The notes under the pieces: model-generated
Told to the model about the DNA's origin: nothing
Databases searched by the model: none
Seen by the model: the letters and a program-made list of their open reading frames with translations, nothing else
Made by a program: the position numbers and the translations under genes
Part shown: one piece after another, positions 1 through 16,072 of the stretch
How positions within the stretch are numbered: position 1 is the stretch's first letter
How the letters are laid out: every line of letters begins with the position of its first letter
From: Candidatus Thorarchaeota archaeon
Lineage (GTDB): Archaea; Asgardarchaeota; Thorarchaeia; Thorarchaeales; Thorarchaeaceae
Direction of reading: 5' to 3'
DNA: 16,072 nt
Assembly: GCA_048884785.1 (NCBI GenBank)
Contig: JBHLQM010000070.1
Span: 1 to 16,072 of the forward strand

Positions 1-1
1 C

Positions 2-1138
2 TTGATATCCATGATGCAGCTTCCAGGACAAGAAGCCGGCGAATTCAGCTGGCTAATCAACATAGCATTCTTCGTCTTCATCGTAGTCTTTAGTCTCTAC
101 GGTGCGAAGATTCAGATGTGGCAATGGCTAAAACAGATAGAAACAGGACTAATAGAACTCAAGCGGATGGCCATAGAATCGCGACAGGTTGCCATCGAGA
201 CCTTCAAGAGATACGGGAGGACAGAGGAGGAAGTTGCAGAAGGGCTAGACAGATGGCTTGACTACTTCACGATTATGCCTGTCGATCTGGACCCGGCGGG
301 AGTTCTCAAACGCCTAGACCATCTGCTTGATGAGAGGCGTGATAGATTCCAAGAGTTTGTTACAGAACTCGCTCCAGAAGGAACTGTTTCAGAGCACCAG
401 TCCCTTGAGAACACCCTAGAAGTATCTCAAGTTCTCAGTCTTATCTTTAGAATAGTACGCCATTTCTATATCCTTGGCAAGAAGACTGGCAGTCAGATTA
501 TGATAATGCAGATTCAGATGCAGCTCCCCGATATTATGCGCCTTGCAAAGGCCTACTATGAGGCTCTTGATGCGTTCTCAGAGGGAAAACCCATTGGAGA
601 TGGAATTGGACCACTGATAGTAACCAAGTTTGCACGTGAGTATGGTGCAAGTCCTCAGAGCTATGTTCATGAGGTGTCTCGTGAGGTTGGCTATTATCCT
701 GTAGATGTTGAGGGTCGTACCGTGTATGCACTGCGGGCAACAGGTCCGGGAGGAACAGTCGGAAAGCCCGGATTTGCTGTAAAGAAGATCGTCGATGAAC
801 ACAAAGGAGCGATTGCAAGAATCATCACAATTGATGCGGCTCTAAAGCTTGAGGGAGAGGATATGGGTCGCGTGTCTGAGGGAACAGGTGCTGCCATTGG
901 AGACCCCGGTCCCGAAAAGCACGCAATTGAGGAAGCCGCAACTCAGAACAGCATTGCAATTGAAGCTATCGTTGTTAAACAAGATGAAGCCGCAGCAGTT
1001 GGTGTCATGAACAAGCGGATACTCGATTCCACACCCGAGGTCATCGAGAGGATCAAAGTAGCAATACGCAAACGCACCAAACCAGGTGACAAGATCATTC
1101 TGGCTGGAATTGGAAATACAATTGGAATCGGCCTGTGA
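2..1138 (+). CDS. DUF1512 family protein with N-terminal TM helix
   Basis: Motifs recalled for archaeal DUF1512: PVDLDPAG, PIGDGIGP, GPGGTVGKPG, IDAALKLEGE, C-terminal GIGNTIGI. Start uncertain at the window edge (TTG at 2, ATG at 11 or 14). Confidence 0.85.
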   Translation: MISMMQLPGQEAGEFSWLINIAFFVFIVVFSLYGAKIQMWQWLKQIETGLIELKRMAIESRQVAIETFKRYGRTEEEVAEGLDRWLDYFTIMPVDLDPAGVLKRLDHLLDERRDRFQEFVTELAPEGTVSEHQSLENTLEVSQVLSLIFRIVRHFYILGKKTGSQIMIMQIQMQLPDIMRLAKAYYEALDAFSEGKPIGDGIGPLIVTKFAREYGASPQSYVHEVSREVGYYPVDVEGRTVYALRATGPGGTVGKPGFAVKKIVDEHKGAIARIITIDAALKLEGEDMGRVSEGTGAAIGDPGPEKHAIEEAATQNSIAIEAIVVKQDEAAAVGVMNKRILDSTPEVIERIKVAIRKRTKPGDKIILAGIGNTIGIGL

Positions 1139-1149
1139 GGTGAATGTAA

Positions 1150-1515
1150 ATGGGAATTATATCTAAAATGATTGGAGCTACTCTGGCTGGAATTGGCGCC
1201 ATAATTGTATTCCTTGGCATGAATGACCCCCTATCCTATCTCTGGTTCTTCTTAGGACTAATAGTCATGTCTGTTGGTTTCAGTCTAATCACTGGCGGGA
1301 AGAAACGGGTTGAACATGAACCACCGCCTCCTACAGTCACCGAGATTCATTGTGATAATTTGGAGTGCGACTTTAAGGAGATCAGGCAGTTTGAGAAGGG
1401 TGACTACATTCTCAAACCAGTCAATGCAAAATGCCCCAAATGCTCTGGTCCCATGACAGTTGAAGGCGTCTACGTGGTAAAAGAAGAGAAAGAAGAAGAC
1501 AAGGTGAAGATCTAA
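1150..1515 (+). CDS. Small membrane protein, two N-terminal TM helices plus a C-terminal Zn ribbon
   Basis: Two hydrophobic segments, a PPPP linker, CDNLEC...CPKC. GAGGTTGA SD-like motif upstream; 11 bp after DUF1512. Confidence 0.8.
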   Translation: MGIISKMIGATLAGIGAIIVFLGMNDPLSYLWFFLGLIVMSVGFSLITGGKKRVEHEPPPPTVTEIHCDNLECDFKEIRQFEKGDYILKPVNAKCPKCSGPMTVEGVYVVKEEKEEDKVKI

Positions 1516-2411
1516 TCCGGTCTTGTCAGAACCACTGGGCCACTCTCTGACACATAGACAGTGTGTTCAGATTGGCTCACCAGACGCCCCTTCTTTGATA
1601 TCTGAACTGGATACCCTCGTATAAACTTGTACTTCAGAAGCTCTTTCAGTTCTCCAAAGAGATTTATCTCCTTGGAAGTTGTTCCGATCCACCGGGATGC
1701 AAAGGGCAGCGGTCCATATTTTTTGCGCAAATGCACTCTGAGTTTTTCTCGTTCTCCTTGAAGCTGTTCATCCTTCCCCGTATTTGCAAAGATATACACC
1801 AAGTCAGAGTCAACGACCTGCCCAGTCCCATTAGTCGCAAATGGCTCTATTGCATATACTTCTCCAACCTCAACTACTTCAGAGCTCCTTGTTGCGACAT
1901 TAGGCACATTCTTGCCCCCATGAAGCATCCATTTTCTCATATTGTGGCCCATGAGGTTGCTGACAGGTTTAATCCCATATGCCTTAATCACTTTCTCAAT
2001 AGACTTTCCTACTTCACCCAGTTTTGTCCCTGGGCGCATCATGGAAATTGCCTCTTCCAAGGCATCATCTGTCGCTGATACAAACCCTTCGAGTGAGCCA
2101 TCCATGTCAAAAGTTCTTGCAACATCGGATAGATAACCATCAATCTGTGCTCCTATATCCACTTTCACCAATCCGGAGTGAGGAAGTACGGAACTATCCC
2201 CCACTGGAGAAGTGTAGTGTGCTGCAATATTATCAATAGAAACATTGCACGGAAAGGCTGGTCTTGCTCCATACTCGATGATTTTCTTTTCAGCAAGAGT
2301 ACATATTCTGAACACTTTTGTTCCAGGAGTCACCTCTTGGGCAATTTCTGCAAGTACTCTTGCAGCAATCTTGCCTGCATTCACTTGAAATGGATGTGGA
2401 GCTGATGACAT
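1512..2411 (-). CDS. map: Type II methionine aminopeptidase, copy 1
   Basis: AFPCNVS, AAHYT, KVDIG, GYLSD, GHN, LHGG, AIEPF, QSEHT: full D-D-H-E-E metal ligand set and the type II insertion. Confidence 0.95.
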   Translation of the reverse strand: MSSAPHPFQVNAGKIAARVLAEIAQEVTPGTKVFRICTLAEKKIIEYGARPAFPCNVSIDNIAAHYTSPVGDSSVLPHSGLVKVDIGAQIDGYLSDVARTFDMDGSLEGFVSATDDALEEAISMMRPGTKLGEVGKSIEKVIKAYGIKPVSNLMGHNMRKWMLHGGKNVPNVATRSSEVVEVGEVYAIEPFATNGTGQVVDSDLVYIFANTGKDEQLQGEREKLRVHLRKKYGPLPFASRWIGTTSKEINLFGELKELLKYKFIRGYPVQISKKGRLVSQSEHTVYVSESGPVVLTRPD

Positions 2412-2464
2412 GGTGATCCAGCCTCTTCAGAAACACAGTCCTTCTTAATACGTTCCATGCGCGC

Positions 2465-3379
2465 TTACTCTTCATCTCTACGTCTAGTCGAAACTATTGC
2501 ACCTTCGGGGCCAACAAATAGGCTGTGCTCAAATTGAGATACCATGCCTCTTCTGCCCTCGATGAGTACGGGATAACCATGGATGGCACCTGCGCGTTCT
2601 AGATTTTTTATTGCAGTATCCACATCAATATCCGACTTGATGCTATGGAGCCAACGTGCTGCCCATGGGAGTGTGCCGAATCTCTGTCGTGCAATGTTCC
2701 GTATTTGCAGTGTCAGTCTATCCAGTTTTCTCTTATTTTTCATATTATTAGAAAAGATGTAGGTTTCCTTAGCTCCACGAATAGTGCCATCTCCTGATGT
2801 GGCGAATGGCTCTACTGCAAAAGTCTCGCCAATATTCATCTTTGAAGAAAGAGCAGTTGCAACATTGGGCACGTTCTTGCCTGCATGCAAATTCCATTGT
2901 TGGAGCTGATGTCCCGAGAGCTGATGAACTGGATTTAGCCCGTGCTTCTTGATTGTGCGTTCTATTGCAGCACCCAGGTCTCCTACTCTGACCCCGGGTT
3001 TCACAGTATCAATAGCTGCCTCAAGGGCTTCCTTTGCAGCTGCGATATATCTCTCATAGGACCCATCCAAGTCCACGGTAACGGCAGTATCCGAGAGGTA
3101 GCCATTAACATGTGCACCAACGTCTATTTTCACAAGCCCCTTGTCAGGAAATGTTCTCATGTCACTGTGCGGACTAGTATAATGAGCCGCTTCCTCGTTT
3201 ATCGATACATTACAGGGGAACGCCAACCCCGATGCTCCGTATTCCATGATCTTCTTCTCAGCTACTACGCATACCTTCAGTACTCTTGCTCCAGGTTTGA
3301 CCTCATTCATTGCGTCACTGATTGCACGCGCAGCAATCTCTCCTGCGTTCATGAAATCAGGGTGTGGCTGGGTAGACAT
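2465..3379 (-). CDS. map: Type II methionine aminopeptidase, copy 2
   Basis: AFPCNVS, AAHYT, KIDVGAH, GYLSDTA, GHQ, LHAG, AVEPF, QFEHS. SD GAGGTG upstream. Confidence 0.95.
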   Translation of the reverse strand: MSTQPHPDFMNAGEIAARAISDAMNEVKPGARVLKVCVVAEKKIMEYGASGLAFPCNVSINEEAAHYTSPHSDMRTFPDKGLVKIDVGAHVNGYLSDTAVTVDLDGSYERYIAAAKEALEAAIDTVKPGVRVGDLGAAIERTIKKHGLNPVHQLSGHQLQQWNLHAGKNVPNVATALSSKMNIGETFAVEPFATSGDGTIRGAKETYIFSNNMKNKRKLDRLTLQIRNIARQRFGTLPWAARWLHSIKSDIDVDTAIKNLERAGAIHGYPVLIEGRRGMVSQFEHSLFVGPEGAIVSTRRRDEE

Positions 3380-3534
3380 GCTTTGGCACCTCTTTCTCTG
3401 TGTCCACCCAATCTGGTATTAATCTTAGTCTAGTGGCGGAAATTAGTGAATTAACAAATTAGCAAAAGGAGTGGTCGATGTCTGTTTCCCAGCACACTAA
3501 CCCCCAGAATCACAGCATCGGATATCCATCCGGC

Positions 3535-3777
3535 TCAACTGAGCTGTCTCGTGTCGGGTAGTATGACACCGACCTGTCCGCCAATGTACGAAACCTGGGT
3601 GACCTGCCACTCATCTAAAGGACAGACATCCCTATCATGCAAGTCCGTTATGGCTCGTCCAGTTGGTTTTCGGCAGACTGCCATCCAACGTGTATCCCAT
3701 TCTATGCGCACCACATCATCACCAAGTGGCTCAGTGTGCCCTCGGGAATGGGCGAATATCGCTGGACACTCAAACAT
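3535..3777 (-). CDS. Hypothetical 80-aa protein
   Basis: ATG preceded by AAGGA, protein-like composition (WQVTQVSYIGGQVGVIL), co-oriented with the map genes. No family recognised. Confidence 0.45.
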   Translation of the reverse strand: MFECPAIFAHSRGHTEPLGDDVVRIEWDTRWMAVCRKPTGRAITDLHDRDVCPLDEWQVTQVSYIGGQVGVILPDTRQLS

Positions 3778-4209
3778 GGCATTTGTCCTTTATCAGGATT
3801 TGTAATTGGCGCCAACTCTCACAAATTTTGAGAATCGGTAATCCTACAAGGTTTTAGATGGTTCTAGCGACATATTCAAAAGGCTTGAAATGCCAAAGAG
3901 CCTTGAAGCAAGGCTGACTAAGGTTCAACCTGCATTCAAAATAATCATATCATTACATTACAATGCCGCGGAGTCCTCGACAAATGCCGTGTGCAAGTCG
4001 ACAAGAAACCGCCAAGCAGTATCATTGGAATATTATCACTCATCATTCACCTATCACAATTTCACTCAACTGGGAAACCCCCCTGAATCTCTTGTAGAGA
4101 GAAATGTGGAGACCGAGTAGCATTATATTATCTCGGATATGAAGGGAGAAACTGGGCTTAACGCCTCGGCAAGTGGTACGAGGGCATGCGGCAATCATAG
4201 GAGACGTGT

Positions 4210-5484
4210 ATAGACATAGGCACAGGTGAATTTGATTCAAGTACTGCAAAATACGTCATCCGCGCCAAAATCGAAATTGATGGCGTCGTGGATAAACCTG
4301 ACGTAGTAGGTGCTGTATTCGGCCAGACCGAAGGCCTGCTAGGGGAGGACTTGGATCTACGTGAACTTCAGAGAACAGGGCGAATTGGTAGGATCCAAAT
4401 AGCAATCAAATCTGAGGGCGGAAATAGCAAGGGCGAGATAGTGATTCCCGTTTCATTGAATAAGACGGCAACAGCCATTCTTGCAGCATCACTGGAAACT
4501 GTGGATCGTGTAGGGCCATGCACCGCAAAAGTTACTCTGATGAAACTTGAAGACATAAGAGGTGCTAAACGGCGAAAGGTCGTAAGTCGCGCCATTAGTA
4601 TCCTGAAAGGATGGGAAGAAGATATTTCTCCTGGAACAGATGAGCTTACAGACGCAGTATCAAAGGCCAGCAAAAAGGGTGTTGCCAAATTTGGGCCTGA
4701 CAAGCTCCCTGCTGGACCGGAACTAAATGATAGCAATGAGATAATCATCGTTGAAGGGCGCGCAGATATTATCAATCTGATGAAAAGTGGCATCACTAAC
4801 ACAGTTGCAGTTGAAGGGACACACGTTCCCAAGTCCATCTCTGACTTAACTCGGAAGAAAGACAAAACAATTGTTGCATTCCTCGATGGGGATCGAGGTG
4901 GAGACCTTATTCTCCGTGAGCTAATGCAAGTGGCAAAAATAGACTATATTGCAAGAGCTCCGGAAGGCAGAGAGGTTGAAACTCTCTCTAGGCGGGAGAT
5001 AACTCAGGCGCTTCAGACGAGAATACGCGCTGACCAAGCACTTGCGCTTGTGAGCGATAAAAAGGTCCCAGTTTCAAAGAGAAAGAAGCCTCCTACTCGC
5101 AGAGATAAGAGAGAAGCACGAGGACCGATTGAGGAGGCACCTCGACGGATGATTCCAGCAAGAGAGCGGCCCCCATCTCGAAGAATCCCTGAAGTTGACG
5201 AGGTCTTTTTGACCAAGGCAAAAGAGCTTCAAGAGTCTTTCAAGGCTACTCTATTTGATGAGAGCAAGCAAGTTCTAATTGAGTGTGGGGTTGCAGAACT
5301 CGCAAAGACGCTCGAATCCCAGTCGACTGTTCCAGTTGTGGTCTTCGATGGGGTTGTGACACAGCGGCTCGTTGATATAGCGGCTACAAAGAAGACAACG
5401 CTTCTCATAGGCGCCGCTGTTGCAGACATTGAAACTAAGCCGCGAGAGATGCAAATAATCACGTTTGATGACATAATCAAGTAG
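4210..5484 (+). CDS. dnaG: Archaeal DnaG-type TOPRIM protein (exosome-associated); start extended to a probable ATA at 4210
   Basis: KPDVVGAVFGQTEGLLG, LRELQRTGRIGRI, TOPRIM VEGRAD and DGDRGG. The conserved N-terminal TAKYVIRAKIE lies in frame upstream of the called GTG at 4288. Confidence 0.93.
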   Translation: MDIGTGEFDSSTAKYVIRAKIEIDGVVDKPDVVGAVFGQTEGLLGEDLDLRELQRTGRIGRIQIAIKSEGGNSKGEIVIPVSLNKTATAILAASLETVDRVGPCTAKVTLMKLEDIRGAKRRKVVSRAISILKGWEEDISPGTDELTDAVSKASKKGVAKFGPDKLPAGPELNDSNEIIIVEGRADIINLMKSGITNTVAVEGTHVPKSISDLTRKKDKTIVAFLDGDRGGDLILRELMQVAKIDYIARAPEGREVETLSRREITQALQTRIRADQALALVSDKKVPVSKRKKPPTRRDKREARGPIEEAPRRMIPARERPPSRRIPEVDEVFLTKAKELQESFKATLFDESKQVLIECGVAELAKTLESQSTVPVVVFDGVVTQRLVDIAATKKTTLLIGAAVADIETKPREMQIITFDDIIK

Positions 5485-5490
5485 AGAATC

Positions 5491-5553
5491 AGGAGATATG
5501 CAACAGAGAAGGATGTATGCCCTCTGTTGCAGACTCCTTTTCCTGCGTTTTTT
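5491..5553 (+). terminator. Stem-loop followed by a T-rich tract after dnaG (terminator or processing site)
   Basis: TGCAACAGAG (5499-5508) pairs perfectly with CTCTGTTGCA (5522-5531), flanked by AGGAG/CTCCT, then TTTT...TTTTTT. Confidence 0.5.
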
Positions 5554-5624
5554 CAGGTATTACTCACATTCAATTCACACTTGTTTCTTACCTTCCAACT
5601 GCAGATAGTGTGAGGCCGCTCGAA

Positions 5625-7058
5625 TTGAAATCGTTCCTAGATGGAATTAGCTCGACAGCAGATATACCAATTAACAGAGATCCCCTACAAAGGATAATTG
5701 GTCAAGAGCAAGCAGTAGACTTGGTTAGGTCAGCTGTCATTCAACGGCGTCATATGCTCCTTTGTGGTGTCCCAGGCGTAGGCAAATCAATGATAGCCCG
5801 AGCAGCTTATACGCTTCTGCCACCTCCAAAGGAGGAAATATGTCTTCAAAGAAACCCTCTTTCTAATGATCGGCCCAAAGTTGTTATTATTCCAATAGTA
5901 AATGCTTTCCCGGAAAGAGAAATTCCTCGGAAGCCCCCTGATGTCAGATATGTGCGGCCGGAGATGCTTCCTTTTGATGTAGGAGTAAAGATGGGATTTC
6001 GATGTCCAAAATGTGGAACCACTTCCTTGCCGAGTCAGAATACATGTATAGATTGCTCGGCTCCCAAGAGGTCTGATTGGGGAGAAACAGGAGCTTTCCA
6101 TGGACTGCTTCATGAATTGGATGTAATAACTGAACCTGCCCTGACTTCTGTTTCTGCCACGGAAGTCATTGAAGGAGAAGAAATGACAATCACCTACAGA
6201 AGAGCATTTGGCGATACCGTGATGATGGTATATGAGGAGAATGATGAACCAGAGAAGAATGCCGCTTCTGGCGAAGAAGAAGGCCTACGAGTACTTGTTT
6301 CACGTGAATCGTCTAGGTTCATACATGTGAGCGGAGCCAGTCCAGTCGAGATTCTTGGTGATGTGAAACATGATCCCTACGGCAGTGCAGAGTCCTTGGG
6401 CATGCCATCACACCATCGAGTGGTACCTGGAGCTATTCATGAGGCACATGAGGGTATTCTCTACATAGACGAGATTGCATCTCTTGGGGATTATCAGAAG
6501 CATCTACTGACAGCAATGCAGGAACGCAAGTTTTCAATTTCCGGACATAATCCAAACAGCTCAGGAGCTGCTGTGCGAGTTGATGATGTTCCATGTGATT
6601 TTCTTCTTTTTGCAGCCTGCAACATAGAAGATTTGCAGAGAATAATTTCTCCTCTTCGATCAAGGATTCGAGGATATGGGTACGAAGTCATGCTGAATTC
6701 ATACATGCCAAAGAAAGATGAGAATATTGAAGGGATTCTAAGATTCATCGCACAGACTGTTGAGGAGGATGGCAGAATTCCTCATTTTTCCCTTGAGGCT
6801 GCAGATGCGATTGTAAAAGTTGCTGAGGAGCTTGCATTTCGCTTCGACGGCGCACGCAATTCCTTGACCCTTCGTCTGAGAGAGCTAGGCGGAATCATCA
6901 GAATTGCAGGTGATATTGCAGCTCAGGACGCAGAAACCCTTGTTCTACAGAAGCATGTCGTTGATGCAGAAGTCTTGAGTAGAGGTATCGAGATAGGTGA
7001 CAATATGATACTGAGGGCAAGAGAACTATCGAATTCCTACGGAGACTATTTCTTCTAA
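5625..7058 (+). CDS. LonB-type AAA+ ATPase lacking the protease domain and TM segments, with a Zn-ribbon insert
   Basis: IIGQEQA, Walker A GVPGVGKS, GDVKHDPYG, VVPGAIHEAHEG, Walker B ILYIDE, LRSRIRGYG, LRLRELGG. Start placed at TTG 5625 (GTGAGG at 5610-5615) rather than ATG 5517, which lies inside the hairpin. Confidence 0.88.
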   Translation: MKSFLDGISSTADIPINRDPLQRIIGQEQAVDLVRSAVIQRRHMLLCGVPGVGKSMIARAAYTLLPPPKEEICLQRNPLSNDRPKVVIIPIVNAFPEREIPRKPPDVRYVRPEMLPFDVGVKMGFRCPKCGTTSLPSQNTCIDCSAPKRSDWGETGAFHGLLHELDVITEPALTSVSATEVIEGEEMTITYRRAFGDTVMMVYEENDEPEKNAASGEEEGLRVLVSRESSRFIHVSGASPVEILGDVKHDPYGSAESLGMPSHHRVVPGAIHEAHEGILYIDEIASLGDYQKHLLTAMQERKFSISGHNPNSSGAAVRVDDVPCDFLLFAACNIEDLQRIISPLRSRIRGYGYEVMLNSYMPKKDENIEGILRFIAQTVEEDGRIPHFSLEAADAIVKVAEELAFRFDGARNSLTLRLRELGGIIRIAGDIAAQDAETLVLQKHVVDAEVLSRGIEIGDNMILRARELSNSYGDYFF

Positions 7059-7085
7059 CCAAGGCTTTAGACATGTGATGACACT

Positions 7086-8171
7086 TTGAAAGTCCTGAAA
7101 CGCATCCTCAAAGAAGGTAAAGTGGTTCTCAAGATTGAGTATCTGGACGATCTATGGCATCTCTACAATGTTGTAGTGCCATCTGATACAGTGATATCTA
7201 GGACCACTCGGCGAGTGCGTATAGGGGACGAAGACTCTCGCAAACAAGACAGTGTACGAAAACCCATGACACTCGAGATTAAGGTTGAGGATGTCGCTTT
7301 CCATTCCTTTTCCAATCGGGTTAGGATAAAAGGAACCATCTTGGAGGGGCCCTCTGACTTGGTAAGTATAGGTTCACACCATACAATAAACATCGAAACT
7401 GGTGATACCCTTACTATCATCAAGGATGTCTGGCCAAAGTACCTGCTCGATAGACTGCAGAAAGCCGAAGAGTCCCAGCAGAGTGCAGTAGCCCTGATAG
7501 TGACAATCGAAGATGGTGATGCTGAAATCTTTATGGCTGCTGACTTTGGAATAAAGGAGGCTGTTCGTGTTCGAATGGACATCTCCCGCAAGCGCGGCGA
7601 TCAAAAGACATACGATGCAACCATGAGGGACTTTTTTACGAATGTTACAATTGCTATAAAGGCACAATTGGAGCAAAACAGCATCGGACTAATCATCATT
7701 GCTGGACCTGGTTTTGTAAAAGATCACTACAAAGAACATCTTCTGGGTGCTGGTATAAAGAATCTGCCTTCAGTAGTAGCAGAAAGCACAAACTCAATCG
7801 GTATCCCGGGAGCGAAAGAGCTCCTCTTCCGTGGTGTCATTTCCAAGGTCGTGGAAAGCATCAAGTTAGAGGAAGAAACCCAGCTAATTGAGAGCATAAT
7901 TGAACATATTGCGAAAGGCGATGGCCTTGCAGCATACGGTCCTGCTGAAGTTGGAAAAGCCGTCCAATATGGAGCGGTTGAGAATCTGCTCATAACGGAC
8001 AAACGCCTGAGAGAAGGTGATTCTGAGCAAAGACGTTGGGCTGATAAGATTATACGCGAAACCGAGAACACCAGAGGCAAATTTCACATCGTTTCTACCG
8101 AGCATCCGGCAGGCGACCAGTTACAGAATCTTGGTGGTATTGCTGCTCTCCTAAGGTTCAAGATTGATTAG
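7086..8171 (+). CDS. pelA: Pelota/Dom34 ribosome-rescue and mRNA surveillance protein
   Basis: DDLWHLYN, TTRRV, RVRIKGTI, GSHHT, IAGPGFVK, AAYG, LGGIAALLRF. TTG start. Confidence 0.96.
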   Translation: MKVLKRILKEGKVVLKIEYLDDLWHLYNVVVPSDTVISRTTRRVRIGDEDSRKQDSVRKPMTLEIKVEDVAFHSFSNRVRIKGTILEGPSDLVSIGSHHTINIETGDTLTIIKDVWPKYLLDRLQKAEESQQSAVALIVTIEDGDAEIFMAADFGIKEAVRVRMDISRKRGDQKTYDATMRDFFTNVTIAIKAQLEQNSIGLIIIAGPGFVKDHYKEHLLGAGIKNLPSVVAESTNSIGIPGAKELLFRGVISKVVESIKLEEETQLIESIIEHIAKGDGLAAYGPAEVGKAVQYGAVENLLITDKRLREGDSEQRRWADKIIRETENTRGKFHIVSTEHPAGDQLQNLGGIAALLRFKID

Positions 8172-9301
8172 AGTGGCTCAAAGAGCGTCTGAAGCCTGTC
8201 CCATGATGGATACTCATATGCAATACCTATCTCAAGTTCTCCCGCCTGAGTGAATATCCTCTTCAGTTCTTGAGCAATCTCTTCCAGAATCCACGGAGCA
8301 ATCTCAAGTCGCAGTCTGCCATAATCGACACTCATCATCTCTTCAGGAACATCAAAATCAGTGAGGAGCAAATTCCACAGGGACTCCAGATTACGTTCAC
8401 TCATCACTCTCCCGCGAGGAGCTCGAATCACTCCTAGAATTAGCAGAGGCTCGTCATCATCCCGTATCTCGAACGGCCGAATCATCCTCTTCAAACGTCG
8501 CTCCAATCGATTCGTCAATTGCACAGAGTCTTTGTATCTTGCCGAACAATAGTGAACACTCATTTTTTGAAGGTTCTTAGAAGACCACTCTAGGACATTG
8601 AGTGCTGTCTCTGCACTTCCTGCGATGCTAGCCGAATCCAGACTGGTTAGCTTCATTCCCATCTTTACCAGACGCTCAAAATTGGTTTCACTAGACTCTA
8701 GCTCATTTACGTTCGCAAAACTTACCCCGACGCTCTCAGCTCTCTGCAGCAATTCCATTAGATATTCAGTCTTTCCTGGGATTGCGGGCACTTCAATTCC
8801 CACAGTCATATTCAGACTGATTGCCCGTTCGATGCCTGACCAATCATTGCCTTGGGGATGAAACCTGATCTCATCTAGCCCTGCAGCCCGAAGTTGCTGC
8901 AGATCTTCAATACTGACATCAGTCTTGCTTGTATAGAGGTGAAGATGGAACCCAGCTCCGTACTCGGACTTTAATAAATTGATGAAATGCAATGTCCTCT
9001 TCATCTCACAGAGAGGATCACCGCCACTTAGTCCGGCTCCTTCAGCACCAATTGCATCAGCTTCCCGAATTATGTCATCATCAACATTAGTAGGCATCTC
9101 GTCTGCGTAGGTCACATCTTTTCCTGCTCTCTTCTCTGAGAGTGGACAATAGTAACATGAGCTATCGCATAGCCCAGTCACAAACAAGACCATTTTGGAC
9201 CCCTTCGCACACATTTTACACCCCTTTGGAAGAACACCGAGTAGTATTGATCCACCATTCAACTCCTTAATTTTCCGGTCTCTCTTGCTCAATTCAGTCA
9301 C
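8168..9301 (-). CDS. Radical SAM protein, COG2108-like, function unknown
   Basis: GCKMC, LFVTGLCDSSCYYCP (CxxxCxxC), SGGDP, HLHLYT, GLDEIRFHP, NELE, HYC. Confidence 0.9.
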   Translation of the reverse strand: MTELSKRDRKIKELNGGSILLGVLPKGCKMCAKGSKMVLFVTGLCDSSCYYCPLSEKRAGKDVTYADEMPTNVDDDIIREADAIGAEGAGLSGGDPLCEMKRTLHFINLLKSEYGAGFHLHLYTSKTDVSIEDLQQLRAAGLDEIRFHPQGNDWSGIERAISLNMTVGIEVPAIPGKTEYLMELLQRAESVGVSFANVNELESSETNFERLVKMGMKLTSLDSASIAGSAETALNVLEWSSKNLQKMSVHYCSARYKDSVQLTNRLERRLKRMIRPFEIRDDDEPLLILGVIRAPRGRVMSERNLESLWNLLLTDFDVPEEMMSVDYGRLRLEIAPWILEEIAQELKRIFTQAGELEIGIAYEYPSWDRLQTLFEPL

Positions 9302-9999
9302 TCTCTTCTCTTTATCGTACGACGGAGTGCTGGATCACTATCTGATAGTTTCTTGGCAACGGCTTCAAAGCTCTCATCATCCTCAACTATGTGTGTAAGA
9401 TAGACGCCAGTACGTCCAACATCATCACGACGTCTGAGAACACGAACTCGCTCGTCTGCTATCGCTCTACTCACTCCAAGCACTTTTGCGACATAAGACT
9501 CATACCCAATGACACCATGTTCAGTATGACCAAAATCTGTTGGTTCAATCAATAACAATCTCTTATCTACACCCGGAACTCTATGACGATTCCTTAGTCC
9601 TTGAAGGTCAATTTGGCCTCCCCATTTATAGAACTCTCTCTCACGAGACATCATCCTAAACAACGGGAAGCTAACTACAATCCCGTCTTCCAGATGAAAG
9701 TGTCCCTTCAATACAGATGATGGTGTTGCCTGTACCAGTTCTTTTCGAATTCCTTTTCCTTCAAGTGCGACCTCAATTTTATAGCTGGAAACAATATCAG
9801 GGACGATTATATCAATGTCAGAGCTAGATGAAGTATCACCCCGTGCCAATGATCCATAGACGTATGGTTTGATACCTGCACGTTCGAGTTTCATCATATA
9901 TATTGAAGCTCTCGCTCTCAACTCATACAGAAGCTGCCAGTGATTATTGTCATACTTGACCATCCTTTTCTCATGGAGGACTTCTGGTTTCCGTGCCAA
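9298..9999 (-). CDS. Pol-beta-superfamily nucleotidyltransferase, COG2413-like
   Basis: GSLARGD...SDIDI, QATP, EFYKWGG, RVPGVDKRL, RRDDVGRTG. TTG start with GGGAG SD. Confidence 0.88.
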   Translation of the reverse strand: MARKPEVLHEKRMVKYDNNHWQLLYELRARASIYMMKLERAGIKPYVYGSLARGDTSSSSDIDIIVPDIVSSYKIEVALEGKGIRKELVQATPSSVLKGHFHLEDGIVVSFPLFRMMSREREFYKWGGQIDLQGLRNRHRVPGVDKRLLLIEPTDFGHTEHGVIGYESYVAKVLGVSRAIADERVRVLRRRDDVGRTGVYLTHIVEDDESFEAVAKKLSDSDPALRRTIKRRE

Positions 10000-10945
10000 T
10001 CTTCTCAGTCAACTCCCTGTTCTTGAGTTCATCAAGTAGACTACAGGTCTTACAAATCCGAGATGAGGTTGGAGTTCCACACTTCGAACATATCTGGGAA
10101 GTGATATCATCATCCGAATGAATCATTACCTCAGCTATTGCTTCTCCGGAGTGCAGGATTGCAGTCAACGTCCCAGGTCTCTTGTATTCCATCTCATTCA
10201 GGAATTCTCGAATATCATTCCTGTACGCCTCCACAGCATATGGACAGGGTATGTCATGATATGGAAGTTTGAGATGATGCGAGTATGCCACGACATCTCT
10301 CTCACTAAGCTCCATAATTGGCTTCACACGAGGTACAAATCCAGGAACTGCGTTTTCCCGAAGTCGATTGGTACGGCCAATCCTGCGACTATCTCCTCGA
10401 AGTATATTCATAATAGTAGTCTGAGCCTCATCATCCATGTTATGCCCAGTTGCAACAACATCTGCTGCAAGCTCTTTTGCTGCGTCGTTGAGAGCTCTTC
10501 GCCTGAAGACACCGCAATAGGAGCACGCTCCATATGTGTTATCCTCCGTTCGCCCTGAAATCACATCATCCAAAGACATTCCGAATAGATCATGAAATGA
10601 GCGAATCTCGAGTGGCAGACTCAGACTCTCTGTCAGTTTCTCTGCAGCTGCCAAAGCTCTATCTCGATATCCCTTAATGCCCTCGTCTATTATGAGTGGT
10701 ATTAGTTCTGATTTTGGGTAATTCTCTTCTATACGCTTCAGGACATCTAAGAGGACGGCGCTATCCTTTCCTCCTGAAATGGCAACAACGATTCTGTCGT
10801 CATCTTGAAACATCTTGTAGCGATTGATGGTCTTGCGTACTCTCTCCACTGTAGTCTGAACCAAACATGCTTTGCACAGGCGCTCAGCTGTATACCTTCT
10901 GAGATAGACAGCTTCCTGCCCACATTTAGAGCACTTAACAGACAT
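9971..10945 (-). CDS. TIGR00269/TtuA-NcsA-Ctu1 family tRNA 2-thiolation PP-loop ATPase
   Basis: SGGKDS PP-loop, CSYCGVFRR, TGHNMDDEAQT, CPY, and N- and C-terminal CxxC pairs. Confidence 0.92.
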   Translation of the reverse strand: MSVKCSKCGQEAVYLRRYTAERLCKACLVQTTVERVRKTINRYKMFQDDDRIVVAISGGKDSAVLLDVLKRIEENYPKSELIPLIIDEGIKGYRDRALAAAEKLTESLSLPLEIRSFHDLFGMSLDDVISGRTEDNTYGACSYCGVFRRRALNDAAKELAADVVATGHNMDDEAQTTIMNILRGDSRRIGRTNRLRENAVPGFVPRVKPIMELSERDVVAYSHHLKLPYHDIPCPYAVEAYRNDIREFLNEMEYKRPGTLTAILHSGEAIAEVMIHSDDDITSQICSKCGTPTSSRICKTCSLLDELKNRELTEKIGTETRSPP

Positions 10946-11013
10946 TCCATAGACTCCAGAATAGGCTTGAATCTGGAATCATTACACTCGCTGTTAAGAT
11001 TAGTCATCTGGGT

Positions 11014-11424
11014 CTATTCGTCTTCTTTCTCGTCAGTTGATTCGTCTGTATGACCATGGTGCTGTTTAGTCTGTACAGCAACCTTTGATGTTCGAAACTG
11101 CGCTGCAAGGATTACATCTTCAATTCCTCTATGCCAATCCGCAGGGGACGAAGCCAATTTAAGATCTTTACAAGCCTCAGCAAGACGTTCTACACGTGCC
11201 AATGATTCTACACGATCTGTTGAGTGGCGTCTTTCATCATACAACTGTAATGCTTGACCCTTCAGTGCTTCCCAATCAATATGTCCGTTTGATTGGAGAA
11301 TTAGCTTGACTCTTGCCAAAGGCTCTTGCCATGAGCCAGGTAGGAACATTGTGAGGTAATCCGTGAAGGCCTTTCTAGCCTTCTCTCTAACATCATCTAT
11401 TGCTACAAGTTGTGAGGTAATCAT
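11014..11424 (-). CDS. Hypothetical helical protein with acidic tail
   Basis: 136-aa ORF filling the gap between co-oriented genes, amphipathic helical pattern. No family recognised. Confidence 0.7.
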   Translation of the reverse strand: MITSQLVAIDDVREKARKAFTDYLTMFLPGSWQEPLARVKLILQSNGHIDWEALKGQALQLYDERRHSTDRVESLARVERLAEACKDLKLASSPADWHRGIEDVILAAQFRTSKVAVQTKQHHGHTDESTDEKEDE

Positions 11425-11515
11425 CGTCCATCATTGACTAATCATGTTTTGTCCCTTATTTAGTCCGATAAGAGTCAAGTTTGCACGGATAGTGCGCAAA
11501 ACTCGACTCGAATGT

Positions 11516-12682
11516 CTAGAATAGCGCTTTTCCTGTCAGAAAGGTGAGGGCAATACTCAATATGACAATTGATAGAGCAGCAATTCGTGCGGGCCACATG
11601 ATATACCTAATCTTCTTCTCATCCTTTATTCTCAGGCTAAGCCCGTTTGATAGGAGCTTGTCTCCATCAAGGAAGGGCACCGGCAAGAGATTGAAGAGAG
11701 CAACTGAGAAGAGGATAATGAACGTCCAGCTCATGAGCTGCTGAAAGTGAAACGCAAACATCGGGTCAAAGAGCAAATCAAAGCCCGGCTTTGGTTCCCA
11801 GTAGTCTGCTCCATATACCCCAATATATCCCCTAGTCGAATCAGGCGTTGCATTTCCTAAAGTCATTTGAAAGGTCCCACGTAACGTATGGACAGTCACA
11901 CTATCTCCGGTGGTTGTGTTGGTCATGAAGAGCGAAACACCGTACCAATTATCAATCTCTGTTTCATTAAGTCCTATAATGACATCACCAAGTTCCAAGG
12001 TTTGGGATGCCGGAGATTCCGGAACAATATCGTAGATATATGCCCCGCTCGGAGGATTAAAGCCCACCGATAGGATTGGACCCATATTCCATATGATTAC
12101 TAGGAAGAAGAAACTCCAGATCAGATTTGCATAGGATCCAGCTGCGAGCAATCGCATTCTTGCTTTTGGAGACGCTTCCTGCTCGAAGACATCCTCATCA
12201 GGCTCAACAAACCCTCCGAAGAGAACTAGAAATGCCAAAAGTCCGGAGCTCTTTATTGGAATTCCATCCTTTGCAGATGCAAGGCCATGTGCAAACTCAT
12301 GTACGATAAGCGTAATTGCCAGTCCAAATAGCATATAGATTAGCGGAAGACCTGTTATGGTGACTCCTGGAATGATTGGAACAACTCCTCCTGCAGTATC
12401 AGGTGCAATGAAGAAGCGTAATAGATTGTCCCCAAACATCCAGAATCCTACAATCATACCGCCAAACGCCACTATTACACCCAAGTTGAAGAATGCCACT
12501 GGAAACTTCTTTCCCATTCTTGTGAGAAAGGCATTCAAACGCTCTGTCTTCCACATCAGGAAGAAAGGCGTACCAGCCTCTAGTCCCTTTTGACTTAATT
12601 TGTCTACACCTACTGCTTGAGCTATGACATAGACAAGTAGATAGAGTCCAACAATGATGAGGAGCGCTGTAGTAATATCCAT
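11516..12682 (-). CDS. Site-2 protease (peptidase M50) with PDZ domain
   Basis: HEFAH zinc motif, GGFVEP, AAGSYAN, PDZ-like SPA...GDVI, NLLPVPFLDG, multiple TM segments. Confidence 0.93.
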   Translation of the reverse strand: MDITTALLIIVGLYLLVYVIAQAVGVDKLSQKGLEAGTPFFLMWKTERLNAFLTRMGKKFPVAFFNLGVIVAFGGMIVGFWMFGDNLLRFFIAPDTAGGVVPIIPGVTITGLPLIYMLFGLAITLIVHEFAHGLASAKDGIPIKSSGLLAFLVLFGGFVEPDEDVFEQEASPKARMRLLAAGSYANLIWSFFFLVIIWNMGPILSVGFNPPSGAYIYDIVPESPASQTLELGDVIIGLNETEIDNWYGVSLFMTNTTTGDSVTVHTLRGTFQMTLGNATPDSTRGYIGVYGADYWEPKPGFDLLFDPMFAFHFQQLMSWTFIILFSVALFNLLPVPFLDGDKLLSNGLSLRIKDEKKIRYIMWPARIAALSIVILSIALTFLTGKALF

Positions 12683-12883
12683 GGCAATTCACTTCAAACA
12701 AGGAGTGTTACTGTGGCGAGTTGCACGAGAGTTATAATGCTTATGTCATGGGCGAATACTTGTCGTTCATCCCAATGCATGAAAACTCAGCTAGACCACA
12801 ACGCTCATAAAGTGAAGTCAAGTGGCTACCGCTGCTGTCTGGCCTTCAGACAGCGGAATAATCTTAGGTAGGCGAGATAATAA

Positions 12884-13267
12884 TTGCCTTTCAAACTAGT
12901 AATTAGTGACCCAGAATCTAAAACGGCCATCCAGTACGAACTGGATGACGCCAAGACCAACGCGCTTGTTGGTAAGACAATCGGAGAGATTGTAGAAGGT
13001 GATGTTCTCGGCCTGCCAGGGTATAAGCTGAAGATTACTGGTGGGAGTGACAAGTCAGGATTCCCAATCCGACCCGATGTACATGGGTCCGGAAAGAAAC
13101 GCATTCTAATCCGTGGTCCTCCGGGCTTTAAGCCAGATAGGAGAGGCACTGCAAAGCGTAAAATGGTGCGTGGCAGAGAACTCGGTTCTGATATCTCACA
13201 GGTCAATATGAGAATTGAAGAGAAGGGATCCACTCCTCTCGAGGATTTGATCACTAAGGCCGCATGA
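12884..13267 (+). CDS. rps6e: 30S ribosomal protein S6e (eS6)
   Basis: FKLVISDP, LKITGGSDKSGFP, RKMVRG, ISQVN. TTG start. Confidence 0.97.
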   Translation: MPFKLVISDPESKTAIQYELDDAKTNALVGKTIGEIVEGDVLGLPGYKLKITGGSDKSGFPIRPDVHGSGKKRILIRGPPGFKPDRRGTAKRKMVRGRELGSDISQVNMRIEEKGSTPLEDLITKAA

Positions 13268-13420
13268 TTTCTAAAAAGTGCTGCATAATGCTGCAGCCTC
13301 GCCTTGGACTATACTTGTACGAATCAGAATCATTGTCTATTGGCCAACATACCATAGACTTCTTATGGGAACCGTTAAGTTCCTGAACACCGACAAGGGA
13401 CAGGTGGAAGTGATTATCAG

Positions 13421-14659
13421 GTGACCAGGTATCAGGGACAGTCTGAAGTTAGCATTGGTGCATTAGGTCATGTGGACCATGGAAAGACAACAATGGTTAG
13501 CTATCTGACCGGAGAGTGGACAGACCGTCACTCAGACGAAATCCGACGTGGTATCTCAATTCGTTTAGGGTATGCTGCCACTAGCATTCTGAAGTGCACA
13601 AAATGCCCTATACCTGATGGCTACACCACATCACATCTTGCAAAAGATGACAAATGTCCCAAATGTGGCGGCGACGTTCAGATAATCAGGGAAATCTCAT
13701 TTGTTGACAGTCCTGGTCACGAGTCTTTGATGGCAACATGTCTTAGTGGAGCCAGCTTGATGGATGGAGCCATACTTGTAATTGCAGTCAATGAGCCCTG
13801 TCCAATGCCACAGACATCCGAACATCTCCATGCACTTGAGATTGTTGGAGTTAATAATATAGTAATTGTCCAGAACAAGATTGAGCTTGTCAGCAGAGAA
13901 GAGGCACTGGAACACTACCGGCAAATCAAGGAGTTTGTTAAAGGCACAATCGCTGAGAACGCACCCATTATTCCCTTCTCAGCCGTCTTTGGTGCCAATG
14001 CTGATTTGCTCATCGATGCAATTCAGAAGGTAGTCCCAACTCCCCACAGAGATGCAGAGGCATTGCCAAAGATGTATGTCGCTCGGTCATTTGATATCAA
14101 CAAACCGGGATCTCTTCCTCAGAATCTCAAGGGAGGCGTTGTGGGCGGATCAGTAGTTCAAGGAAAACTCAAAGTTGGAGAAGAGATTGAGATCACCCCG
14201 GGTCATAAGACCGAAAAAGGCTTTGAACCAATCAGGGCAAAGATTACTAGTCTTCTCTCCGGAAGTGGAAACAGTCTTCAAGAAGCTTTTCCAGGAGGGC
14301 TAATTGGAGTTGGAACCGAACTGGATCCCGCATCTACAAGGGCTGACCGGTTGGTCGGGAATGTTATTGGACGGGTGGGAAAGCTTCCGAAACCAATAGA
14401 GAAGATGATGATAACTCCCAAACTCATGGAACGGGTCGTTGGCTCAGAGAGTCACGCAGCTGTTGGGAACCTCCGCTTGAATGAGCCTCTTATGTTGGTC
14501 GTTGGGACCGCTGCAACAGTTGGGGTAATCTCTAGACTGCATGGAGAAGACATTGAGCTTGTTCTGAAACGTCCCGTTGTCGCAGAGCCCGGACAAAGGA
14601 TTGCAATTGGTCGTCGTGTTGAGAACAAGTGGCGACTGATAGGTCATGCTCAGCTCTAG
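13421..14659 (+). CDS. eif2g: Translation initiation factor aIF2 gamma subunit
   Basis: [28 protein letters not shown], Zn knuckle, [28 protein letters not shown] start. Confidence 0.97.
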
Positions 14660-14676
14660 AAAAAAAATCTGGTAGT

Positions 14677-15093
14677 GTGAACCGAGTGCCTCTGGTGGTG
14701 GTCCTTGATACAAATTTCATTGCCGTACCAGCACAGTTTGGTGTAGATATCTTCTCAGAGGCACAGAGAGTACTAGAACAGAGTCTGGAGTTTGTCATTC
14801 TGTCAAGTGCGCTTGATGAGCTGGAACAGAGAATTAGCTCAGCCAAATCGAAAACTGAGGCTCGGGATTTTAGGATTGCACGAGACCTGGCCGAGCGCTG
14901 CAGAATCGAAATAATAGAGCCAGCATCTGAAGGCAAGAGCGTCGACGACCAGCTTCTTGAATTTGCACAGCTTAATAGCGGGGTTCTGGCTACAAATGAT
15001 AAGGAACTACGGCGGCGCGCACGGTCTGCTGGAGTTCCAGTATTACTTCTCAGAGGTCGGTCGCACCTTGTTCTCGATGGTACAGTAATTTGA
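14677..15093 (+). CDS. PIN-domain nuclease (Fcf1/Utp24-like)
   Basis: VVLDTN, ELE, VDD, LATNDKELR; canonical position between eif2g and rpoE1. Start GTG 14677 or 14686 preferred to the overlapping 14629. Confidence 0.88.
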   Translation: MNRVPLVVVLDTNFIAVPAQFGVDIFSEAQRVLEQSLEFVILSSALDELEQRISSAKSKTEARDFRIARDLAERCRIEIIEPASEGKSVDDQLLEFAQLNSGVLATNDKELRRRARSAGVPVLLLRGRSHLVLDGTVI

Positions 15094-15212
15094 CCCGTGT
15101 CACAATGTTTTTATGGCTTATACAGTGAAGGGCCGCTGAGCCGGCGGATTCAGACTATCGGGGCGAATCTGAAGTCTGATTGTTCTTCAACTCATCAATC
15201 AAGGAGCTGATT

Positions 15213-15809
15213 ATAACGTATTCAGTTGTTACTGTTAGAGATGTTGTACGCATTCCACCAAAGGAATTTGGTGCACCACTTGAGAAGGCGGCAGCAACGC
15301 ATCTCAGAAAGACATCAGAGAATGTTCTGGACCGCGACATCGGTCTTATGATTGCAGTCATTGGAATTGATGAGATTGGTCAGGGCAGATTGATGCCCGG
15401 TGACGGTGCGACATACCACACAGTCCAATATCAGGTACTTGCATTCAAGCCAGTTCGTGGTGAGTTGATTGAGGGAAATGTTGTAGAGCTAATGGACTTT
15501 GGAGCATTCATTCGAATGGGGCCTCTTGACGGATTATGCCACGTGAGTCAGATTTGCGATGATTTCATAACCCAAGACTCGAAAGGGAACTCCCTGCTTG
15601 GGAAGGAAACTGGTCGAACGCTCTCTGAAGGGGACCAAGTTCGAGCCAGAATTACGTCTATCAGCTTTGAGTCAGGAAACAGATCCGGAAAACTCGGTCT
15701 TACAATGCGACAGCCATTTCTAGGAAAAGTTGGACCTGATGCGTCATGGATTGAGGATGACGTCAGGTCAGCTCGAGGAGATGCAAAGAAGGAGAAGAAG
15801 AAGGAGTAA
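15213..15809 (+). CDS. rpoE1: RNA polymerase subunit Rpo7 (RpoE'), probable ATA start at 15213 (alternative TTG 15180)
   Basis: DVVRIPP, PGDGATYH, S1 domain FGAFIRMGPLDGLCHVSQI, GLTMRQPFLGK. Confidence 0.95.
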   Translation: MTYSVVTVRDVVRIPPKEFGAPLEKAAATHLRKTSENVLDRDIGLMIAVIGIDEIGQGRLMPGDGATYHTVQYQVLAFKPVRGELIEGNVVELMDFGAFIRMGPLDGLCHVSQICDDFITQDSKGNSLLGKETGRTLSEGDQVRARITSISFESGNRSGKLGLTMRQPFLGKVGPDASWIEDDVRSARGDAKKEKKKE

Positions 15810-15825
15810 ATCTAGGTGAGTAATT

Positions 15826-16038
15826 ATGGCCCGAGCAAAAGCCTGTCGTGAGTGTCATTATCTAACCACGGAACCACAATGTCCTAACTGCAAAAGCACC
15901 AACCTATCCACATCCTACACCGGTGTAGTAGTAATTCTTCCAGGACGCGATGTGCACGATGATCCCCGAAAATCGTCATACATTGCCGATCGGCTGAATA
16001 TTGACAAACCCGGTAAGTACGCTCTGAAGGTCAGATAG
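15826..16038 (+). CDS. spt4: Transcription elongation factor Spt4 (RpoE'')
   Basis: KACREC...CPNC, PGKYALKVR. SD AGGTGA. Confidence 0.95.
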   Translation: MARAKACRECHYLTTEPQCPNCKSTNLSTSYTGVVVILPGRDVHDDPRKSSYIADRLNIDKPGKYALKVR

Positions 16039-16072
16039 GTTCCAAATTCTTGTCACTGGTGAAAGCTTTATT

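Follow-up and report, generated by a model that had tools for sequence, protein, structure and literature searches.

A zinc-ribbon paralogue of archaeal LonB without a protease domain, encoded downstream of dnaG in Thorarchaeota, is a candidate ATPase of the 20S proteasome

The only ATPases currently known to serve archaeal 20S proteasomes are of the classical AAA type, namely PAN, Cdc48/VAT and AMA. These are ring-type unfoldases with a flexible C-terminus, and the archaeal proteasome-docking motif at its end has Phe or Tyr in the penultimate position, preceded by a residue that is small or hydrophobic and followed by one of any kind (PMC3493965). Archaeal LonB (T. onnurineus structures 3k1j and 4zpx; model TIGR00764; MEROPS family S16) is a different AAA+ motor, which carries a transmembrane hairpin and its own S16 Ser-Lys protease domain. 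Here we analysed a gene at positions 5625 to 7058 of a 16,072-nucleotide stretch of DNA (the window) that covers positions 1 to 16,072, forward strand, of contig JBHLQM010000070.1 from a Candidatus Thorarchaeota archaeon (assembly GCA_048884785.1). A preliminary description, made from the sequence without database searches, had read this gene as a soluble, protease-less LonB ATPase with a tail resembling the HbYX (hydrophobic residue, Tyr, any residue) motif, and had proposed it as a new activator of the 20S proteasome. The observation was confirmed and the interpretation was partly supported. It is near certain that the window protein is a soluble LonB-type AAA+ motor of the unfoldase type, a member of an archaeal sister clade of LonB; the best-supported reading, to which we assign a probability of about 0.5, is that it docks on the 20S proteasome as an additional proteasomal ATPase.

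A LonB-type motor with a zinc ribbon and no protease domain

The open frame spans positions 5517-7058 of the forward strand and ends with a TAA stop at 7056-7058. The 36 residues that follow its upstream ATG (5517) are unconserved among homologues, the N-termini of which (MTSxLDxIETT..., 37 homologues) match a TTG at 5625 and not this ATG; moreover, a GAGG sits 9 nt 5' of the TTG. TTG 5625 was thus taken as the start, which predicts a protein of 477 amino acids (P0001) with the following features:

5625..7058, + strand: protease-less, soluble, zinc-ribbon LonB-paralogue ATPase, 477 aa from a TTG start (alternative ATG at 5517 without homologue support)
5766..5789, + strand: Walker A GVPGVGKS, residues 48-55; G48, P50, G51, G53, K54 and S55 invariant; aligns with GEPGTGKS of T. 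onnurineus LonB (TonLonB)
5847..6302, + strand: soluble insertion between Walker A and Walker B, residues ~75-226, at the position of the LonB transmembrane hairpin
6003..6056, + strand: zinc ribbon CPKC-x10-CIDC, residues 127-144; four Cys invariant
6369..6383, + strand: HDPYG with the candidate pore-loop-1 aromatic, residues 249-253; H249, D250, P251 and G253 invariant, Y252 nearly so; aligns with TonLonB HDPFQ
6456..6473, + strand: Walker B ILYIDE, residues 278-283; D282 and E283 invariant
6654..6686, + strand: LRSRIRGYGYE block with candidate arginine finger, residues 344-354; invariant, and identical in TonLonB
6864..6893, + strand: LTLRLRELGG lid block with candidate sensor 2, residues 414-423; T415, L416, R417, R419, G422 and G423 invariant; aligns with TonLonB LTLRLRDLGG

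The AAA+ module is alike that of LonB block by block. A phmmer search against PDB sequences matched 3k1j at E 1e-77, and the ATPase motif blocks were identical or near-identical to those of TonLonB in the resulting alignment. Indeed, the Walker A (G48-S55), Walker B (D282/E283), N333, R345/R347 and R417/R419 are all invariant in an alignment of 38 homologous sequences, so the statement that the Walker, sensor and Arg-finger motifs are intact holds. The Phe of HDPFQ, to which Y252 corresponds, we take to be a pore-loop residue of TonLonB. An AlphaFold2 (AF2) model built from the 38-sequence alignment reached a mean predicted local distance difference test (pLDDT) score of 72.5, and its top Foldseek matches in the PDB were 4zpx and 3k1j, both the TonLonB ATPase (E ~1e-29, 32-33% identity). 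The best matches thus lie in the Lon branch and not in the classical AAA clade of PAN/Rpt, Cdc48 and AMA, and the PAN model TIGR01242 gave no match to the gene.

Foldseek also returned far weaker matches (~1e-7) to RuvB, MCM and ComM. These hexameric motors, together with faint Pfam matches to MCM and RuvB_N and with the conserved adjacency to dnaG described below, could point to a nucleic-acid translocase or helicase that is paired with DnaG in a primase-helicase-like manner and binds DNA or RNA through its zinc ribbon. We consider this quite improbable: the LonB module matches far better (E 1e-77 and 1e-29 against ~1e-7), the LonB-aligned HDP[Y/F]G loop is conserved, and similarity to RuvB or MCM is expected of any AAA+ core.

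The match to LonB is nevertheless partial. The NCBIfam LonB model TIGR00764 scored 325.7 bits, below its curated equivalog cut-off of 516.6, and the match reached only model position 406 of 608, leaving the protease half (407-608) unmatched. The Pfam search of the protein returned AAA+ fragments only and no Lon_C (S16 Ser-Lys protease) domain, and the next gene, pelota, starts 27 nt past the stop. The protein is not a LonB protease; the lack of a protease domain had already been seen in the preliminary description. A score below the cut-off and an unmatched protease half might also be expected of a truncated or decaying LonB gene, or of an assembly artefact. This is refuted by conservation, and we give it practically no credence: hundreds of genomes, belonging to several phyla, encode proteins of the same architecture at 466-525 aa, the zinc ribbon and the catalytic motifs are invariant, and the clade is split from LonB at a support of 100.

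The HMMER match to LonB breaks into two stretches around the insertion between Walker A and Walker B, which AF2 models as mostly beta at moderate confidence. No membrane segment was found: the highest 19-residue Kyte-Doolittle window was 1.1 in the whole protein and 0.71 in the insert, the mean hydropathy of which was -0.42, in agreement with the soluble character proposed earlier. A zinc ribbon, absent from the preliminary description, replaces the transmembrane hairpin of LonB; its four cysteines (C127, C130, C141 and C144) are invariant in the Thorarchaeota homologues and in distant members from other phyla. The family can be recognized by a CxxC-x(8-16)-CxxC pattern in this insert, a length of ~470-525 aa and no protease domain, a combination found in the window protein.

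In a FastTree phylogeny of 80 proteins (SH-like support, midpoint root), zinc-ribbon protease-less proteins formed a 49-row clade that included P0001, and LonB a 31-row clade, each with a support of 100. Two rows of the zinc-ribbon clade that a rule based on length and a regular expression had tagged as LonB are mislabelled family members, and branching within the clade was broadly taxonomic. Canonical LonB and the paralogue are found together in Thermoplasmatota, Methanobacteriota and Micrarchaeota. Given this separate clade and this coexistence, the family is an ancient sister clade and paralogue of LonB and not the product of a recent protease loss. The earlier idea that the motor had replaced its own peptidase suggests a recent event, which these results do not support. 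Among the Asgard genomes sampled, the full-length protease-less form was present in three further families (f7, f19 and f27) besides the window's own, where 42 of 43 genomes have it; most other Asgard families show canonical LonB only, and canonical LonB was not found in the window's Thorarchaeota family.

As for novelty, the family is already catalogued: the Swiss-Prot entries 'Putative lon protease homolog' of T. acidophilum (Q9HLX6) and T. volcanium (P58275) are members, with 493-495 aa, a zinc ribbon, no protease domain and a penultimate Tyr (both end in ...DDRSYE). At a related Thermoplasma locus (L035), dnaG immediately precedes the ATPase gene, as in the window. The two proteins differ from the window protein in sequence (~45% identity or less), in ending with S-Y-E and not Y-F-F, and in the lack of a pelota neighbour. 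In the literature searched, there was no paper on the family, on 'Putative lon protease homolog', on Ta0098 or on Q9HLX6, nor a functional study of the two entries, and the paper on the ProEnd HbYX database makes no mention of Lon in the proteasome-tail sense. The family thus appears to be unstudied, though not new as such.

A disordered linker and an aromatic C-terminus in place of the protease

The alignment with LonB stops at residues 453-456 (RGIE against KPLE, the end of the TonLonB AAA module). The 21-residue tail begins exactly where the LonB linker to the protease ring begins, and by this alignment it is predicted to lie on the exit face of the ATPase ring. In the AF2 model, the final helix extends to about residue 452 and the pLDDT is ~30 over residues 455-477, which leaves about 25 residues after the lid (about 30 had been estimated); the flexible-looking linker and the Y-F-F end were thus correctly seen, the last codons being tac gga gac tat ttc ttc (YGDYFF). 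Two features make up this region, which in the window protein replaces the S16 Ser-Lys protease domain of LonB:

6993..7040, + strand: variable disordered linker, residues 457-472; columns 486-508 of alignment A1 unconserved in sequence and length, pLDDT ~30
7041..7055, + strand: C-terminal motif G-D-Y-F-F-COOH, residues 473-477; Y475 invariant

The end of the protein is conserved, as its supposed function would demand of protease-less homologues according to the preliminary description. We examined the 120 best database homologues (54-65% identity, 471-513 aa), the named members of which are Thorarchaeota, Hermodarchaeota or Promethearchaeota, together with the query. All 121 sequences end in Y-[F/Y]-[F/L] (YFF 102, YYF 11, YYL 4, YFL 4), and the ~20 residues that precede these three vary freely in sequence and length. 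At species level, in a sample that spans Asgard lineages, Thermoplasmatota, Methanobacteriaceae and Altiarchaeota, 44 complete family members were compared with 32 canonical LonB proteins from the same search. Tyr or Phe was penultimate in 32/44 family members versus 2/32 LonB. Among distant orthologues in general, the context of this residue varied with lineage: other Asgard families end in ...SLYG (LYG) and ...ARYG (RYG), Thermoplasmatota in SYE, SYQ, SYD, SYH, GYG, GYR, GYE, MFH, MFN or MFS, Methanobacteriaceae in SYM or SYL, Altiarchaeota in SYG or GYR, and one Korarchaeota member in YFA.

Such ends are uncommon in the source genome, where the pattern [LVIMGAPFYW][FY]x terminates 3.0% of 1732 long open reading frames (ORFs) and Y[FY]x terminates two. 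The other Y-F-x protein (C12:46639-47463, ...MMYFS) belongs to the AAT/Ntn-hydrolase family and is not a proteasome chaperone. A survey of two archaea found the former pattern in 63/1484 and 133/3368 proteins, about 4% (Forouzan et al. 2012, PMC3493965). The Y-F-F tail of the window protein fits this pattern, at the end of a flexible tail and with conservation among orthologues, and a natural penultimate Phe was shown experimentally to work in M. mazei PAN-A (PMC3493965). Moreover, the Thorarchaeota consensus Y-[F/Y]-[F/L] has Tyr third from the end and Tyr or Phe after it, exactly as in the Y-F/Y motif that the human 20S prefers and in the YYX tails found in Blm10/PA200 (Opoku-Nsiah et al., 10.1101/2021.04.28.441858), although the Y-F/Y motif was defined with peptides on the human particle, whose preference is perhaps not that of Thorarchaeota, where PAN ends in M/L/F-Y-small. 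The window protein also differs from PAN, Cdc48 and AMA, the classical AAA clade surveyed in PMC3493965, in belonging to the Lon branch, in carrying a zinc-ribbon insert and not an N-terminal coiled-coil/OB or double-psi barrel domain, and in its bulky last residue, and its docking is a prediction. A PCNA-interacting tail (PIP box) was rejected on inspection by eye, since the upstream positions misfit Qxx[LIVM]xx[FY][FY].

Proposed docking on the 20S proteasome

The docking proposal draws on four observations taken together: the tail replaces the protease ring, it is disordered, its penultimate aromatic is found across phyla, and it fits the published motif. According to this proposal, the ATPase would form a hexamer, as expected from its homology to hexameric LonB. 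The zinc-ribbon crown, on the substrate-entry side, would select substrates, and the conserved pore loop (HDPYG) would thread them through the ring, presumably unfolding them. The six C-terminal tails would then insert into pockets between the 20S alpha subunits, as do the HbYX tails of PAN, Cdc48/VAT and AMA, and the 20S would supply the peptidase that the motor lacks.

The components required for such an association are encoded in the source genome (G000). It has two alpha and two beta 20S subunits, and in the alpha subunit Y, D, R, P, G and Lys remain invariant. It also has two Cdc48 proteins, with tails ...PQYM and ...TMYG. No PAN above the cut-off was found in the source assembly, which is 91% complete; as 41 of 43 genomes of the same family, both members of the same genus among them, have a PAN above the cut-off, its absence most likely reflects the incomplete assembly. 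For the same reason we rejected the idea that the ATPase replaces PAN: the two coexist, and the ATPase would work beside PAN and Cdc48 and not instead of them. The PAN tails of Thorarchaeota (FYG, MYC, LYC, LYS, MYG and once MFC) indicate that the 20S of this lineage uses standard HbYX docking and tolerates a penultimate Phe.

A complex prediction with three copies of alpha-1 and ATPase residues 446-477 gave an interaction prediction score from aligned errors (ipSAE) of 0.00, for a partner of 32 mostly disordered residues that is unlike the calibration set, and thus speaks neither for binding nor against it. The two proteasome alpha paralogues (L007:1402-2166, - strand, on G000 C21, and L005:1408-2148, + strand, on G000 C2) share 38% identity. 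The divergent one adjoins a 243-aa gene that is SBDS-like by eye only, and homologues close to it (E <= 1e-65) were found in no Asgard families other than f1, f7 and f19, where the protease-less ATPase is also encoded. As these families are likely related to one another, the co-occurrence may reflect shared ancestry and was not counted as independent evidence. The genome further encodes a 408-aa AAA protein whose N-terminus resembles a Vps4 MIT domain, by eye only; the coordinates given jointly for the observation on PAN, Cdc48 and this protein are G000 C60:17226-17984, C30:22736-23494 and C3:33700-34452.

A motor without a protease could also feed another peptidase, such as a stand-alone Lon protease domain, a LonC-like protein or the M24 peptidases encoded nearby. 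Two LonC-like proteins are indeed present in the genome, two M24 genes lie in the Thorarchaeota neighbourhood, and one M24 gene lies beside the Anstonellales member. We nevertheless hold this to be very unlikely. No stand-alone Lon protease domain, which would have spoken for such a partner, was found in the 91%-complete genome; its only Lon_C matches are two LonC-like proteins of ~820 aa (C46:11490-13961, + strand, and C15:10473-12932, + strand; L001 and L002), and both carry, besides Lon_C, their own N-terminal ATPase-like module with a Walker A and a long helical insertion. M24 enzymes, for their part, are small exopeptidases and not chambered proteases. LonC-like proteases (MtaLonC; 4fw9, 8k8v) are also Lon relatives with one half disabled or missing, but they present the mirror case: they keep the protease, and the LonC ATPase-like module is reported to have no unfolding activity (PMC3391209), whereas in the window protein the ATPase is intact and the protease is missing.

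Several points weigh against docking on the 20S. No member of the family is known to bind the 20S. The conserved neighbour of the family is dnaG and never a proteasome gene. The last residue of the window ATPase and its close relatives is bulky (F/L), unlike the small one at the end of PAN in Thorarchaeota, and in other lineages the third-last residue is often Ser (Arg in one family), outside the published set. Micrarchaeota members end in E-[TIV]-[ASV], with no aromatic, though their genomes keep the 20S. Heimdall and f27 members end in [LM]-W-N-G and Anstonellales members in DVR; with these exceptions, the aromatic tail is not essential to the core function of the family.

A loss of the aromatic tail that follows a loss of the proteasome was considered for the Micrarchaeota and rejected: each of the five genomes tested encodes 20S subunits as well as a Cdc48 with a canonical tail (MYR, MYG, MFR or GYG), and no PAN was found in them. 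The conserved tail variants in this phylum are PETA, KEIS, KEVA, REIA and SETV (L059, L064, L065, L069-L073, L078, L079), at loci mostly without a dnaG neighbour.

The dnaG-ATPase-pelota neighbourhood

The genes around the ATPase in the window are the following:

1150-1515, + strand: 121-aa ORF between the DUF1512 and M24 genes, no Pfam match
1512-2411 and 2465-3379, - strand: tandem M24 metallopeptidase paralogues (methionine aminopeptidase or prolidase type), upstream of dnaG
4288..5484, + strand: dnaG (archaeal DnaG/Toprim; NF003108 DNA primase DnaG, 441 bits against a cut-off of 300)
7086..8171, + strand: pelota (aPelota/Dom34; TIGR00111, 283.7 bits)
8168-10945, - strand: radical-SAM gene, small nucleotidyltransferase-like ORF and TtuA (tRNA 2-thiouridine synthetase), convergent to pelota

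In the window, dnaG ends 140 nt before the TTG start of the ATPase. This arrangement, with dnaG less than 200 nt upstream on the same strand, is shared by 29/44 family loci across phyla and by 0/32 canonical LonB loci, and dnaG often overlaps the ATPase start (gaps of -27 to +20 nt). A longer order is conserved within the Thorarchaeota (DUF1512, two M24 peptidases, dnaG, the ATPase, pelota, the radical-SAM gene and TtuA), but across phyla dnaG is the only gene retained from it; dnaG is thus the deepest conserved gene link of the family. The order ATPase-pelota was also found in L015, with gaps of 10-28 nt in L074-L077, and pelota lies 1391 nt downstream in L093. Pelota was not found beside the family members examined from other phyla and is a neighbour in Thorarchaeota only.

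The syntenic Thorarchaeota locus L015 also has the M24 pair, a 123-aa ORF without a Pfam family in the place equivalent to that of the 121-aa ORF, and the block of radical-SAM, nucleotidyltransferase-like and TtuA genes after pelota; a single M24 gene abuts the Anstonellales member (L030). At loci of families f7 and f19, a class I S-adenosylmethionine-dependent methyltransferase (Methyltransf_11) lies directly 3' of the ATPase (L025:3461-4378, - strand; L026:3551-4366, - strand; L029:5823-6653, + strand). In L025 it shares 4 nt with the end of the ATPase gene at the stop, and a tRNA-splicing endonuclease is encoded upstream in L026.

The cellular role of archaeal DnaG is still debated. Archaeal DnaG is a cap subunit of the RNA exosome (PMC4227792, PMC3672285). 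The main rival to the docking proposal starts from this neighbour: the protein might be a remodeller without a proteolytic role, linked to DnaG and the exosome and, in Thorarchaeota, also to ribosome rescue, that works with no peptidase and whose tail docks on DnaG, on another exosome- or ribosome-associated protein or on its own ring. The recurrent and often overlapping dnaG, which no LonB locus shows, and the close pelota of Thorarchaeota argue for it, as does the zinc ribbon, which could bind nucleic acid or a partner protein; moreover, in the Micrarchaeota, which count as one lineage, the aromatic tail and a neighbouring dnaG are mostly both missing. We regard this alternative as possible but doubtful. 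Binders of the 20S are specifically marked by Tyr or Phe as the penultimate residue of a free C-terminus that follows a disordered linker on the exit face of an unfoldase ring (PMC3493965), and recognition of such a tail is not known for DnaG or the exosome cap. In addition, dnaG no longer adjoins the ATPase gene in the Asgard families f7 and f19, yet their RYG and LYG tails are kept, and conserved housekeeping gene order alone is no proof of physical interaction.

The position of the ATPase after dnaG, and before pelota in Thorarchaeota, suggests RNA decay or translation quality control as the source of its clients. The proteasome alpha gene has long been noted to lie within the exosome superoperon, a placement that a coupling of RNA and protein decay would echo. 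A bolder extension, which as a whole seems unlikely to us, would make the array of dnaG, lonH-like ATPase and pelota the archaeal counterpart of eukaryotic ribosome-associated quality control, and the family a fourth, non-classical-AAA class of archaeal proteasomal ATPase that couples RNA and protein decay. Pelota would split the stalled ribosome and the DnaG-bearing exosome would degrade the faulty mRNA, while the zinc-ribbon Lon-type motor would extract the nascent chain and feed it to the 20S via its eukaryote-like Y-F/Y tail.

The docking idea is directly testable in the classic T. acidophilum 20S system, as this organism encodes Q9HLX6 (...RSYE). Should the tail bind another partner, the family would still be of interest, as a widespread and conserved archaeal ATPase that is unstudied and has dnaG as its strongly conserved partner in the operon. 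If docking is true, a Lon-derived AAA+ motor on the 20S would add an unrelated class of proteasome regulator, and a lineage of self-compartmentalised proteases would have given up its own peptidase and used another chamber. It would also provide a handle on the link between RNA surveillance (DnaG/exosome, pelota) and protein degradation in archaea, including the Asgard relatives of eukaryotes.

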